A stretch of DNA of 64,000 nucleotides from an uncultured Clostridium sp. GTDB lineage: Bacteria; Bacillota; Clostridia; TANB77; CAG-508. This document shows, one piece after another, positions 45,772-48,633 of the stretch (within the stretch, counting starts at the first letter, position 1; each line of letters opens with the position of its first letter). Made by a program: the position numbers and the translations under genes. The notes below the pieces were generated by a model. It did not search any database and was not told the origin of the DNA. It was given only the letters and a program-made list of their open reading frames with translations. Location: assembly GCA_900557195.1 (NCBI GenBank), contig USRT01000004.1, forward strand, positions 18,133-82,132. Reading direction: 5' to 3'.

Positions 45772-48633
45772 ATGAAGGTTTTATTTGCGGTAAATAATGA
45801 AAAGATTTCTGAGTCGATAATAAAAAGATATCAGAGAGAGTATAAGGAGATAATATCAAGTAAAAATGTATATTATTTTAACGCAATATTAAAAGAATTA
45901 CAAAAGGATAAATCATATGATAGAATAATTATTAGTGAGGATTTAGAGCCATTTTCTAATAATAATTATGAAGCAATTGATAAATTTATATTTGATAAAC
46001 TAGATAAAATAAGTGATGAAGCATTTAATCAAGAAGGAGCAAATATACCAATTATTCTAATTGGTACAGATAGACGTACAAGACCAGAACCATTATTAAT
46101 AAAGTTATTTGGTATTGGGGTATATGATGTATTAGTAGGACAGGACAGAAGTGTAGAAAAAGTTTGCGAACTATTAAATAAACCAAGGAGTAAAAAAGAA
46201 GCAAAGGTATATTATAAAATTGATTCAGATGACGTTGATTATAAACCAGAAAATGAGAATGATGTAAGTGAGGTAGAAATACAAAATATACTAGCACATT
46301 ATAAGAAACTAGGAAAAAATGAAGAAAAATATATTGAAAGTTTTGACAGTATAGCTGTACAATATACAGATGAGCAGTTAAAATTAATAGTTACATTTTT
46401 ACCGAAGAATGTAACTTCTGTATTAGAATCTGGATCATCTAAATATAGACAAGTAATGGGATTAAATCCAAAAAATTTTAATTCAAAAGACAAGAGAATA
46501 AAAGCTAAAAATGAAGATAGTCAAAAAATTGAATTTATAGAAAAAGAATTAAATAAACAAAAATTAAGTAAACCAGTAATAATTCCAACTTCTGTAGATA
46601 CAAATAAAGTAAAGAAAATAGTAGATAAAAAAAGTGAAAAAGCATTAAAAGAAGAAATGCAAAGAAAACAAGAAATATTAAAAAAGAAAAAAATGCAAAG
46701 AAAACAAGAAATGTTAAGTAGAGAGCAAATGCTAAAAGAACAGGAAAGAAAAAAAGAGAAGAGAACTATAGAAAAAATGCAAGAGAAAGAAGAAAAGTTA
46801 CCTTCAATGAACAAAATAAATAATAGTGAAGAGCCTAAGAGAAGAGGAAGACCACCTAAAAATATAAAAGAAAATCTTCCAAATGTAGAAGATATTATAG
46901 AAGAACCAGCAAAAAGAAAAAGAGGAAGGCCACCTAAAAATAAAAAAGAAGATATTAAAGATATAGAAGTAAATGTAGAAGAGCCAGTAAAAAGAAAAAG
47001 AGGAAGACCACCTAAAAATAAAAATATTGAAGAAGAACTACAAAAAGAGGAAATTAAAGAGAAAAAGATACCTACTATTGATGATGAGTTTGAAACATTA
47101 TCAGAATTCGATGATTACAAAGATGATGAAAAAGATGATGATGGAATATTACCAGGCTTTGATGATGATTACGAAGATGAAGAAGATGACGATGAAGTAC
47201 TGCCAGGCTTTGATGATTACGAAGACGAAGAAGATGATGATGAAGTACTGCCAGGCTTTGATGATTACGAAGACGACGAAGATGATGATGAAGTACTACC
47301 AGGATTTGACGATTACGAAGACGAAGAAGATGATGATGATGTATTACCGGGCTCTGATGATTACGAAGATGACGAAGAAGATGATAATGAAGTACTACCA
47401 GGATTTGACGATTACGAAGACGAAGAAGAAGATGATGATGAACTACCAGGATTTGATGGTTATGAAGACGATGAAGAAGATGATGATGAACTAACAGGCT
47501 TTGATGATTATGAAGACGATGAAGAAGATGATGATGAACTACTAGGCTTTGATGATTACGAAGATGACGAAGAAGGTGATGATGATACATTACCGGTGGT
47601 TGATGGTGACGAGGAAGATGATGATAAAAGTAACAATTATAGTGAACCAATTAGTAATCCAAATTTCAGAAGGATGGAACCAATTAGTAAGCAAAATTCA
47701 AGAGAAATAGAAAATACTAATAAATTTAATTCTTCAGTTAATTTTAATATAGATAATTTAATAAGTAGTGACCAGAAAATTGTATCGTTTATAGGTACAT
47801 CAAAAAATGGAACATCATTTTTAGTAAATAATTTAGCTCAAATGTTTTCAGAAAAAGGAATAAAAACAGCAATATTAGATCTTACACAAAATAGAAACGC
47901 ATATTATATATATACAGATAATAGAGAAGAATTAAGAAATATAGCATATAATTGTATTGAAAATCTAAGAAGAGGAGTAGCAGAAGGAATTCAGGTTAAT
48001 AAAAATTTAACTGTATATACATCATTACCAGATGAAATAGAAGGACTAAAAGATTATGAAAATATCTTAGAAACTTTACTAAACAATTATTCTCTTGTAT
48101 TATTAGACTGCGATTTTGAGACAGAAGTACAATATTTTAACGCAGTACAAGAAATATATTTAGTACAAAGTCTAGATGTATTAACTATTCAACCACTGAC
48201 AGCTTTTTTAAGAGAATTAAAAGCAAAAGATATATTAGATCAAAATAAATTGAGAATAGTAATTAATAAACATATAAGAATAAGTAATATGAGTGATAAA
48301 TTACTAATTGGTGGAATGAGTTCATATAATGATCCTAGTATGTCTTTTATGACAGAATTGTTTGATAAAAATAATGTTAAATATACGACTATTCCTTTTG
48401 ACCAACAAGCATATAGCAAATATTTAGATGGACTTGTAGATTGCAAGATTTCTTTAAGAGGCTATTCAAAGAATATGATACAAAGTTTTAATAAATTAGG
48501 AAATATGGTATTTCCTCTAATTAGTAATACTAAGTCATCAAAAGAAAAAAGTAACAATAAATACAATAACTATAATAGTAATTTTTCAAATAGTACAAGT
48601 AATACTTTAAATAAAATGAAGAAAAAATATTAA
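45772..48633 (+). CDS. Large multi-domain protein: receiver-like N-domain, K/E-rich region, three AT-hooks, about 10 acidic tandem repeats, and a ParA/MinD/CpaE-like C-domain with a degenerate P-loop
   Basis: The AT-hooks are KRRGRPPKN, KRKRGRPPKNK and KRKRGRPPKNK at about 46831-47024. The (V)LPGFDDYEDEEDDDE repeats span 47104-47628. The C-domain has VSFIGTSKNGTSFLVNNLAQMFSEKGIKTAILDLTQ. Confidence 0.7.
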   Translation: MKVLFAVNNEKISESIIKRYQREYKEIISSKNVYYFNAILKELQKDKSYDRIIISEDLEPFSNNNYEAIDKFIFDKLDKISDEAFNQEGANIPIILIGTDRRTRPEPLLIKLFGIGVYDVLVGQDRSVEKVCELLNKPRSKKEAKVYYKIDSDDVDYKPENENDVSEVEIQNILAHYKKLGKNEEKYIESFDSIAVQYTDEQLKLIVTFLPKNVTSVLESGSSKYRQVMGLNPKNFNSKDKRIKAKNEDSQKIEFIEKELNKQKLSKPVIIPTSVDTNKVKKIVDKKSEKALKEEMQRKQEILKKKKMQRKQEMLSREQMLKEQERKKEKRTIEKMQEKEEKLPSMNKINNSEEPKRRGRPPKNIKENLPNVEDIIEEPAKRKRGRPPKNKKEDIKDIEVNVEEPVKRKRGRPPKNKNIEEELQKEEIKEKKIPTIDDEFETLSEFDDYKDDEKDDDGILPGFDDDYEDEEDDDEVLPGFDDYEDEEDDDEVLPGFDDYEDDEDDDEVLPGFDDYEDEEDDDDVLPGSDDYEDDEEDDNEVLPGFDDYEDEEEDDDELPGFDGYEDDEEDDDELTGFDDYEDDEEDDDELLGFDDYEDDEEGDDDTLPVVDGDEEDDDKSNNYSEPISNPNFRRMEPISKQNSREIENTNKFNSSVNFNIDNLISSDQKIVSFIGTSKNGTSFLVNNLAQMFSEKGIKTAILDLTQNRNAYYIYTDNREELRNIAYNCIENLRRGVAEGIQVNKNLTVYTSLPDEIEGLKDYENILETLLNNYSLVLLDCDFETEVQYFNAVQEIYLVQSLDVLTIQPLTAFLRELKAKDILDQNKLRIVINKHIRISNMSDKLLIGGMSSYNDPSMSFMTELFDKNNVKYTTIPFDQQAYSKYLDGLVDCKISLRGYSKNMIQSFNKLGNMVFPLISNTKSSKEKSNNKYNNYNSNFSNSTSNTLNKMKKKY
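47104..47628 (+). repeat. About 10-11 tandem 48-51-bp coding repeats (acidic LPGFDDYEDEEDDDE units)
   Basis: The direct repeat ctgccaggctttgatgattacgaagacgaagaagatgatgatgaagta recurs with 48-bp spacing (for example 47210 and 47258). Later copies drift to 51 bp. Confidence 0.85.

Follow-up and report, generated by a model that had tools for sequence, protein, structure and literature searches.

A 953-residue gut-clostridial protein with a pseudo-receiver and a degenerate MinD/ParA-fold domain around an HMGA-like linker: a possible membrane-DNA adaptor

We analyzed a 953-aa protein encoded at 45772..48633 on the forward strand of a 64,000-nucleotide (nt) stretch of DNA from an uncultured Clostridium sp. 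(contig USRT01000004.1; the whole stretch is referred to as the window). The protein belongs to an unnamed family with a common core composed of an N-terminal pseudo-receiver domain and helical bundle, a long disordered linker, a C-terminal MinD/ParA-fold domain and a basic hydrophobic tail, and in the clade of the window the linker additionally carries AT-hooks and a conserved acidic motif. The individual parts are of known kinds (a receiver-like fold, a MinD fold, AT-hooks and an acidic tail); sequence models do not recognize either end domain, and we have not found the combination described. Full-text literature searches combining AT-hook with ParA, receiver and Clostridia gave nothing relevant among the top-ranked papers, in which the term AT-hook did not occur, and among the results listed for a search combining AT-hook, MinD and membrane tether there was likewise no paper containing it. 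Based on our observations, we propose, with confidence somewhat short of even, that the protein is a non-catalytic membrane-DNA adaptor, in which a TadZ/CpaE-like pseudo-ATPase serves as the scaffold for an HMGA-like insert that would bind DNA; our confidence in the structural and evolutionary description of the family is much higher than that in the mechanism.

The gene is real. Its open reading frame (ORF) starts with ATG, has a ribosome-binding site, GGAGGGG, ahead of the start, and begins 4 nt after the stop codon of an ORF for a 138-aa membrane protein. The original prediction, made from the sequence alone, had described three AT-hooks, about ten acidic repeats and a degenerate Walker A motif (IGTSKNGTS), and this description of the ORF is accurate. 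The features of the gene, in coordinates of the window, are as follows.

45772..48633, + strand: ORF under study, 953 aa; full-length orthologs of 704-1337 aa in 73 GTDB loci
45772..46191, + strand: pseudo-receiver domain with a (beta-alpha)5 fold, aa 1-140, from AlphaFold2 and Foldseek
46264..46479, + strand: helical bundle, aa 165-236, conserved, with no function assigned
46564..46596, + strand: motif LSKPVIIPTSV, aa 265-275, inside the linker
46624..46806, + strand: K/E/R/Q-rich segment, aa 285-345, holding a 36-bp DNA repeat (x2) at 46647-46717
46834..46863, + strand: AT-hook 1, PKRRGRPPKN, aa 355-364, Pfam AT_hook
46912..46941, + strand: AT-hook 2, KRKRGRPPKN, aa 381-390, Pfam AT_hook
46990..47019, + strand: AT-hook 3, KRKRGRPPKN, aa 407-416, Pfam AT_hook
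47083..47637, + strand: acidic region with ten tandem units of 16-17 aa, (V)LPGFDDYEDEEDDDE, aa 438-622
47761..48531, + strand: MinD/ParA-fold domain, aa 664-920, from AlphaFold2 and Foldseek
47794..47817, + strand: P-loop-like motif GTSKNGTS, aa 675-682
48532..48630, + strand: N/S-rich tail, with the conserved basic and hydrophobic motif FSxxxSNTLNKMKKKY at the terminus

First, we evaluated the N-terminal region. In an AlphaFold2 model with a mean predicted local distance difference test score (pLDDT) of 85.5, residues 1-136 form a (beta-alpha)5 receiver fold that is followed by a five-helix bundle at aa 167-236 (helices 167-179, 184-195, 200-209, 212-221 and 223-229; block-mean pLDDT about 84-88 over aa 171-230). 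Foldseek matches the N-domain to the receiver domains of VraR, ComE and DesR, with target template-modelling (TM) scores of 0.62-0.68 at a root-mean-square deviation (r.m.s.d.) of about 3.5 Å, and equally well to the N-terminal domain of CpaE (4n0p; target TM score 0.68, r.m.s.d. 3.6 Å) and a Burkholderia pilus-assembly protein (4dad). The earlier comparison with the receiver domain of CpaE/TadZ-type proteins thus holds at the level of the fold, where the CpaE N-domain is among the matches, whereas the sequence models all fail: when the N-domain and the bundle were searched on their own at E<=10, neither Pfam Response_reg nor TadZ_N matched, phmmer does not place the N-domain among PDB sequences, and hhalign of the N-domain against CheY gave nothing. 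As judged by position relative to the secondary structure of the model, the receiver phosphorylation constellation appears to be missing: N8/N9 follow strand 1; an invariant E56 stands just after strand 3, with residue 57 variable; residue 99 is variable and strand 4 is not followed by a conserved Thr or Ser; and G123 follows strand 5, where a conserved Lys is lacking. The helical bundle is conserved even among distant family members and matches no Pfam family at E<=10. An assignment of the bundle as a helix-turn-helix of the NarL/LuxR type, which alignments to full-length VraR, RcsB and NarL had brought up, was rejected on account of poor r.m.s.d. values (11-15 Å) and the lack of any matching sequence model.

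Second, we examined the C-terminal domain, for which the AlphaFold2 model has a pLDDT of 84.4 and a predicted TM score (pTM) of 0.88. The top Foldseek matches are MinD, ParA, Soj, FleN, FlhG, BcsQ and McdA (TM scores 0.6-0.68, identity 9-18%, E 3e-8 to 1e-6), with MinD best, which bears out the suggested MinD/ParA fold, and the domain is 60-98% identical across orthologs. At the sequence level, Pfam CbiA scores 15.2 bits on the 953-aa protein and remains below its cut-off of 25.4 (a sub-threshold CbiA/MinD/ParA match), NCBIfam models find nothing on the whole protein, a profile of the family finds no sequence in the PDB, and hhalign of the family against E. coli MinD returns a probability of 0.2. 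Pfam, NCBIfam, the PDB profile search and hhalign accordingly place neither end domain in Response_reg, TadZ_N, CbiA or ParA.

The motif GTSKNGTS keeps the length and the glycines of GxxxxGK[ST], with a Thr replacing the P-loop Lys and a Lys at position 4. Among 149 representative clusters, the family pattern is G-x-x-K-x-G-[TVI]-[ST]-F-x-x-N, GK[ST] occurs in 0/149, and the position-4 Lys is missing too in a few, so the Walker A motif is degenerate, as had been proposed, throughout the family. The deviant Walker A motif xKGGxxGK[ST], with its signature Lys and P-loop Lys, is absent from GTSKNGTS. In the register of a short, non-significant hhalign segment, K11, K16, D38 and D40 of E. coli MinD correspond to T676, T681, D703 and T705, and an alignment to CapB agrees with this register (GKS to GTS). 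D703 (Switch-I-like) and D779 (Walker-B-like) are invariant and the equivalent of the catalytic D40 is T705, in an alignment register that is without statistical support. As read from the sequences, both MinD-type lysines are lost throughout the family. Because the equivalents of the signature Lys, the P-loop Lys and the catalytic Asp are replaced, ATP-driven sandwich dimerization and hydrolysis, the basis of ParA/MinD patterning, appear unlikely. The earlier suggestion of a ParA scaffold with a segregation role is therefore retained with respect to the fold, whereas ATP-driven segregation is unlikely with both lysines lost in every member.

Third, we analyzed the linker, where the three AT-hooks, of the KR(K/R)RGRPPKN type noted earlier, are recognized by Pfam AT_hook (PF02178) at 22.1 bits against a cut-off of 17.4, in three stretches, and are spanned by a 78-bp DNA repeat present in 2.4-2.8 copies. 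In 74 full-length orthologs, R-G-R-P and a Lys at +4 are found in 152/152 hooks; two hooks are present in 68/74, three in 5/74 and one in 1/74, and the third hook is confined to the closest relatives. By their sequence the RGRP hooks are putative binders of the minor groove of AT-rich DNA. The ten acidic units span aa 460-622 and include six perfect LPGF copies, the others reading LPGS, LTGF, LLGF or LPVV; Tandem Repeats Finder reports a 48-bp period in 9.4 copies (47128-47585, 86% matches). The copies differ in synonymous codons for Leu, Pro and Gly and retain the peptide, which argues for selection on the peptide. Downstream of the last hook and ahead of the C-domain, 71/74 orthologs have one or more [IV]-L-P-G-[FL]-[DE]-[DE] motifs amid acidic residues, with 150 motifs observed versus 1.7 expected from shuffles of the same segments, and 46/74 orthologs have a single copy. 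Since their recurrence in 74 orthologs is far above that obtained by shuffling, the hooks and the acidic motif do not stem from chance, and the combination of basic hooks and acidic region that had caught the eye in the window is a genuine conserved module and not an oddity of one strain. As 71/74 orthologs keep the motif, mostly in one copy, we interpret the ten-copy array as an amplified conserved short linear motif; of the ten or so acidic repeats first pointed out as a feature, it is thus the motif that is conserved and not the array. In the same part of the gene, two long out-of-frame ORFs at 47027-47494 (+, 155 aa) and 47075-47650 (-, 191 aa), whose translations are rich in M/K/T or H/L/R, arise from the GAT/GAA repeat and are not genes. 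Elsewhere in the linker, L[ST]KPV[IV]IP[ST] is found at the position of LSKPVIIPTSV in the orthologs inspected.

The array itself turns over fast, in both copy number and unit sequence, among close relatives. In two of these (L040 and L003) both end domains are 94-97% identical to those of the window protein and the array region is 52-62% identical, the array units being internally homogenised but different: TSLPG[FL]DDYEDEEEDD in L040 and IELPGF/IESPEF in L003. Two assemblies of the same species also differ in the array. The gene thereby offers a clear natural case of a conserved short linear motif that has been tandemly amplified and rapidly homogenised. Linkers of other lineages contain repeats of their own, namely ER/K-rich KAEAEAKRKEEERIA repeats in L012 and L024, Q-rich NSQMQEQQRNM repeats in L074 and P/Q repeats in P0371; these lineage-specific stretches take the place of the K/E/R/Q-rich segment of the window protein and are far longer. 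From its composition, that segment probably forms a single charged helix or a coiled spacer, and the KAEAEAKRKEEERIA repeats are probably single alpha-helix spacers. In the 1337-aa orthologue of L024, expansions are present at aa 300-600 and 640-1000, with more than 20 copies of DNDDLLDFDEDEEEEE. Among family members, the end domains are 60-97% identical versus 14-65% for the linkers.

This variability leads to the first alternative, in which the linker is a flexible low-complexity spacer, and the hooks and acidic repeats result from replication slippage in an AT-rich genome and are tolerated without serving any function. Linker composition that varies wildly by lineage, distant members devoid of hooks and LPGF motifs, and an array that differs both among relatives with nearly identical end domains and between two same-species assemblies are all consistent with it. 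An RGRP core with its Lys in every one of the 152 hooks, two hooks in 68/74 species, an acidic LPG[FL][DE] motif about 90 times above shuffled linkers and held as a single copy in 46/74 species, and synonymous codon changes that leave the peptide intact all speak against it, and we consider a mere spacer unlikely. With regard to the proviso, made at the outset, that a hypervariable insert would speak for a spacer, the array does vary among close relatives, whereas the hooks and the acidic motif are conserved in 74 orthologs.

Hooks next to a contiguous highly acidic region are a hallmark of HMGA and of the C-terminal part of Myxococcus xanthus CarD, and CarD and one orthologue were named in 2010 as the sole prokaryotic HMGA-like proteins (PMC2919716); for mammalian HMGA2, too, the order described is hooks and then the acidic part (PMC4482583). 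The window protein shares with HMGA1a, HMGA2 and CarD the presence of several RGRP AT-hooks beside a contiguous acidic region in an intrinsically disordered segment, with the hooks at aa 355-416, the acidic region at aa 438-622 and a net charge of -111 over aa 421-620 (-89 for the whole protein). It differs in that the module is inserted between two folded domains of a MinD-like scaffold, neither standing alone as a protein nor being fused to a domain that binds RNA polymerase, in that the acidic part holds a conserved, tandemly amplified hydrophobic LPG[FL] motif, and in its occurrence in Clostridia instead of myxobacteria. The eukaryote-type HMGA design of AT-hooks and acidic region has arisen anew in bacteria, inside a MinD/TadZ-like pseudo-ATPase. 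The most distant members of the family (P0371, P0376, P0381, P0386 and P0387) retain the two end domains, joined by a long linker of low complexity; since the hooks and the acidic motif are missing from them, the HMGA-like module is a clade-specific gain on an older scaffold.

The family is widespread and sharply bounded. A scan of one genome per GTDB species found relatives in at least 554 species genomes, and the listed relatives are all uncultured gut Clostridia (Clostridium sp. CAG:571, CAG:508 and CAG:273, Candidatus Merdicola and metagenome-assembled genomes, the latter from the gut of human, mouse, chicken, rabbit and roe deer). The gene is hence carried by hundreds of uncultured gut Clostridia species, with humans, mice, chickens, rabbits and ruminants as hosts, and the recurrence of AT-hooks and acidic motif in 74 orthologs answers the call for a survey of phylogenetic spread. 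A complete ORF of 704-1337 aa, starting MK[VI]LFAV, is present in 73 fetched loci, among which L047 is a HiFi chromosome with a complete ORF of 811 aa. A profile search of 1.84 billion representative proteins (50% identity clusters) gave only 419 clusters at E<=1e-3, from which we conclude that the family is sharply bounded, and the profile falls short of ordinary ParA/MinD proteins. Neither cluster look-ups nor a homologue search seeded with distant members returned a curated name or a cultured organism; the labels obtained for relatives are 'hypothetical protein' and one automatic 'MinD-like ATPase', and among Pfam and NCBIfam models and characterized proteins none represents the family. PADLOC indicated no link to a defence system, and PHROGs gave nothing meaningful.

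Searches with the two end domains returned 711 and 551 matches, with identities of 58-100% and 64-92% among those listed, and the 120 top-ranking ones for each end comprise nothing but fragments, 209-466 aa in length. Two same-species metagenome scaffolds have a run of Ns inside the acidic repeat (L001 5500-5650; L002 5600-5720), as a result of which gene callers keep the last 319 aa only. We therefore rejected the possibility that database homologues of 319-466 aa represent stand-alone C-domains; they are gene calls truncated where an N-gap or a contig end falls within the repeat. Short-read assemblies are systematically broken by the low-complexity middle of the gene, which is why the best database matches to either end are fragments, and this helps account for the family having escaped notice.

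Finally, we analyzed gene neighbourhoods by tblastn of the window's neighbour proteins against 78 loci, of which 73 have upstream DNA. Three neighbouring features stand out.

45351..45767, + strand: co-conserved 138-aa membrane protein, with hydropathy peaks at aa 1-27, 74-100 and 107-137
48657..49757, + strand: 366-aa membrane-anchored degenerate GGDEF protein, Pfam GGDEF E=3.7e-9
49771..50950, + strand: IreB, RuvX and DUF1292 genes and a terminator-like hairpin, in 78/78 loci

A homologue of the membrane protein lies directly upstream in 73/73 loci and the degenerate GGDEF gene directly downstream in 78/78, and so the apparent operon seen in the window proves to be conserved. IreB, RuvX and DUF1292 follow downstream in all 78 and are probably in the same transcription unit; the terminator scan places the region's only terminator-like hairpin at 50914-50950, after DUF1292. 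The 138-aa protein begins with a signal or transmembrane segment, continues with some 55 soluble residues and ends in a transmembrane hairpin with the loop GIRKLDVRDKGF, and it matches no Pfam or NCBIfam family. Its family, likewise unnamed, has a variable and often acidic extracytoplasmic stretch followed by the conserved hairpin and a second transmembrane segment (window 45351-45767; L083 7405-7953; L084 5629-6093), with the hairpin consensus S(I/F)P(L/I)CF(V/I)GI..(I/G)(R/N)KLD.(R/K)(D/E)(K/Q)GF. The GGDEF-like protein has RYMGPKF in place of GG[DE]EF, preceded by AEEY, lacks the RxxD I-site and has an N-terminal transmembrane segment. The distant loci L083 and L084 likewise have the membrane protein upstream, its hairpin motif included; the GGDEF gene is absent from L083, where IreB-RuvX-DUF1292 directly follow the scaffold gene. 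As L083 lacks the GGDEF gene and has the membrane protein, the invariant pair is that of membrane protein and scaffold. In the same two loci a PBP5-type D-Ala-D-Ala carboxypeptidase gene (Peptidase_S11) lies just upstream of the pair (L083 6227-7264; L084 4407-5549), which hints at a connection to the cell envelope.

The design of the scaffold is TadZ/CpaE-like, because an atypical receiver is combined with a MinD-like domain that lacks the P-loop lysine. In TadZ/CpaE the atypical receiver serves protein-protein contacts, the Walker-A-like motif, K/RGGXGXS/T, is devoid of the P-loop Lys, and the protein acts as a localisation hub rather than a motor (bioRxiv 10.64898/2026.07.08.737194). Both the domain order and the structural matches, with 4n0p and 4dad among the best for the N-domain, support the comparison. 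The differences are (i) that there is no sequence-level relationship, GTSKNGTS sharing with K/RGGxGx[ST] only the loss of the P-loop Lys, (ii) that the tad locus is absent and the 78 loci have other fixed neighbours, and (iii) that the window protein additionally has a helical bundle, a disordered linker of 400 aa in which AT-hooks and acidic array are embedded, and a basic tail at its C-terminus, and is paired with a dedicated partner bearing a transmembrane hairpin.

A second comparison is with MinD, in which a C-terminal amphipathic helix binds the membrane (PMC11407121). MinD is the best structural match of the C-domain and both proteins end in a short, basic and hydrophobic tail. In the window clade the tail motif is F(S)xxMNxTLNKMKxxY, and more distant members end in KKGLFG, RRGIFG or KKFFG, the first and last of which resemble the membrane-targeting helix of MinD-like ATPases. 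E. coli MinD reportedly also binds DNA and tethers it to the membrane (PMC3792344). Unlike MinD and its relatives FlhG and FleN, however, the family has the signature Lys, P-loop Lys and catalytic Asp equivalents replaced at 9-18% identity, no MinC or MinE partner lies nearby, and contact with DNA would here be made by the AT-hooks of the linker.

Taken together, we propose the following mechanism. The linker of the window clade gained two or three RGRP AT-hooks and an acidic segment with [IV]LPG[FL][DE], and in the species group of the window the acidic motif was amplified into the fast-evolving ten-copy array, of net charge about -111. Attachment of the protein to the membrane would come from the co-transcribed membrane partner or partners, perhaps with a contribution of its C-terminal tail, the two folded ends may provide for self-association or partner docking, and the AT-hooks would contact the AT-rich chromosome (about 26% GC). 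The acidic LPGF segment may either (i) fold back on the hooks and gate DNA binding, as the acidic tails of HMGA and HMGB do, or (ii) offer multivalent docking sites for a partner. The nucleoid-organising or auto-inhibited DNA-binding role first put forward remains plausible, and a DNA-membrane adaptor, if that is what the protein is, would provide a handle on chromosome organisation and anchoring in small-genome, very AT-rich Clostridia. The alternatives account less well for the conservation of hooks and motif, for the loss of the lysines and for the constant gene neighbourhood.

Several points weigh against an adaptor of this kind. The five distant members listed above have neither hooks nor LPGF motifs, from which it follows that the core function of the family is independent of DNA binding by AT-hooks. 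The GxxKxGT[ST]F loop is strongly conserved and, judged from this, could form a non-canonical ligand site instead of a dead one. The mapping of receiver residues leans on secondary-structure position in the model and not on structural superposition, the hydrophobic moment of the C-terminal tail of the window protein is unremarkable (average for the protein), and tad genes are absent nearby, so that the analogy to TadZ is one of design only.

A bolder form of the adaptor proposal, which we regard as improbable though worth stating, takes the protein to be a catalytically dead, MinD-like coupler of chromosome and membrane in a large lineage of uncultured gut Clostridia, with the transmembrane hairpin partner as anchor and the hooks on the nucleoid. 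The acidic motif would act on a cell-cycle protein, either docking it at several sites or serving as a multivalent decoy, and the whole would be a functional analogue of Noc or RacA made from unrelated parts. The acidic [IV]LPG[FL][DE] motif is reminiscent of how the FtsZ C-terminal peptide and SSB end, in the acidic tips [IL]-P-x-F and IPF respectively, and on that reading the protein would be a nucleoid-occlusion or chromosome-anchoring factor. A search of the 84 fetched loci and the window for FtsZ, SSB tails, ParB and canonical ParA/MinD gave one unrelated KGGVGKTT ORF only (L037).

In place of a DNA adaptor, the pair of membrane protein and P-loop-fold protein could be related to the bacterial tyrosine kinases (BY-kinases) CapB/PtkA of Firmicutes and their transmembrane modulators CapA/TkmA, the family member then being a pseudo-kinase that regulates an envelope process. 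A CapA-CapB chimera is indeed the best single-sequence match in the PDB, albeit weak (E=1e-3 over 126 residues), the capA-capB gene order is matched by the small membrane protein upstream with its 4-nt gap, there are tyrosines in the C-terminal tail, and two distant loci have the PBP5-type carboxypeptidase upstream. Kinase activity is not expected, however, in the absence of the Walker A Lys; the membrane protein has no Wzz/GNVR domain, BY-kinase NCBIfam models do not match, the family profile finds no PDB sequence, and the 50 structural matches listed are of the MinD, ParA, FleN, FlhG, BcsQ, McdA, HypB or NifH type, with CapB not among them. The tail tyrosines are scattered and form no cluster, and polysaccharide genes are not adjacent. 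We therefore hold kinship to the BY-kinases to be quite improbable.

Slightly more doubtful still is a sporulation-specific morphogenetic protein, SigK-dependent and expressed in the mother cell. It draws on the sigK gene at 44210-44800, 550 bp upstream, whose proximity would hint at sporulation, on a Spo0A encoded by the distant-member contig L083 and on a CtpB-like protease within the window. Yet sigK adjoins the family gene in only 16/78 loci, on either strand, and in the window (44210-45000) it carries a 1-nt frameshift at ELRF|GLNG, with region 4.2 continuing in another frame, while the 953-aa gene is intact. The same frameshift is found in two independent metagenome assemblies of the species (L001 and L002), so the position of sigK loses its value as a hint. 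Close relatives have an intact sigK (L040, L003 and L004) and other loci have other frameshifts (L010, L053 and L063), which may reflect recurrent decay of late sporulation control in the lineage.

Two further readings have very little in their favour. A functional ParA-type ATPase driving chromosome segregation or positioning unaided, with AT-hooks replacing the usual non-specific DNA-binding surface, would account for a MinD/ParA fold and DNA-binding motifs in one chain and for the retained D703 and D779, but it is very improbable given the family-wide replacement of both lysines and the D40 equivalent, the lack of a ParB-like partner in 78 loci, a CbiA score below cut-off and a family profile that misses ParA/MinD proteins. 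We give equally little credence to the protein being a genuine orthologue of TadZ/CpaE in charge of placing a Tad/Flp pilus machine, which would suit the atypical-receiver-like N-domain, the MinD-like domain without P-loop Lys and the type IV prepilin peptidase gene of the window, since tadA, tadB, tadC or rcp flank the gene in 0/78 loci, Pfam TadZ_N and NCBIfam CpaE models do not match, and the K/R-G-G of TadZ is missing from the Walker-A-like motif. The comparison with CapA/CapB, for its part, is one of arrangement, a membrane protein followed by a P-loop-fold protein with CapB as the best single-sequence PDB match, and differs in the family's lack of a Walker A Lys, a Wzz domain, a tyrosine cluster and a polysaccharide locus.

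In other regions of the window, the prepilin peptidase (Peptidase_A24) is encoded at 5006-5737, and a cluster of division and envelope genes at 13971-19419 includes FtsE, FtsX, two PcsB-like M23 peptidases and the CtpB-like S41 protease. An Xaa-Pro peptidase (Creatinase_N and Peptidase_M24; 5755-6826) and TypA/BipA (GTPase and C-terminal parts; 36503-38327) are present as overlapping split ORFs, and ispG is intact in the window and split in L001 (9872-10925) and L002; such split housekeeping genes could be true pseudogenes or assembly indel errors.

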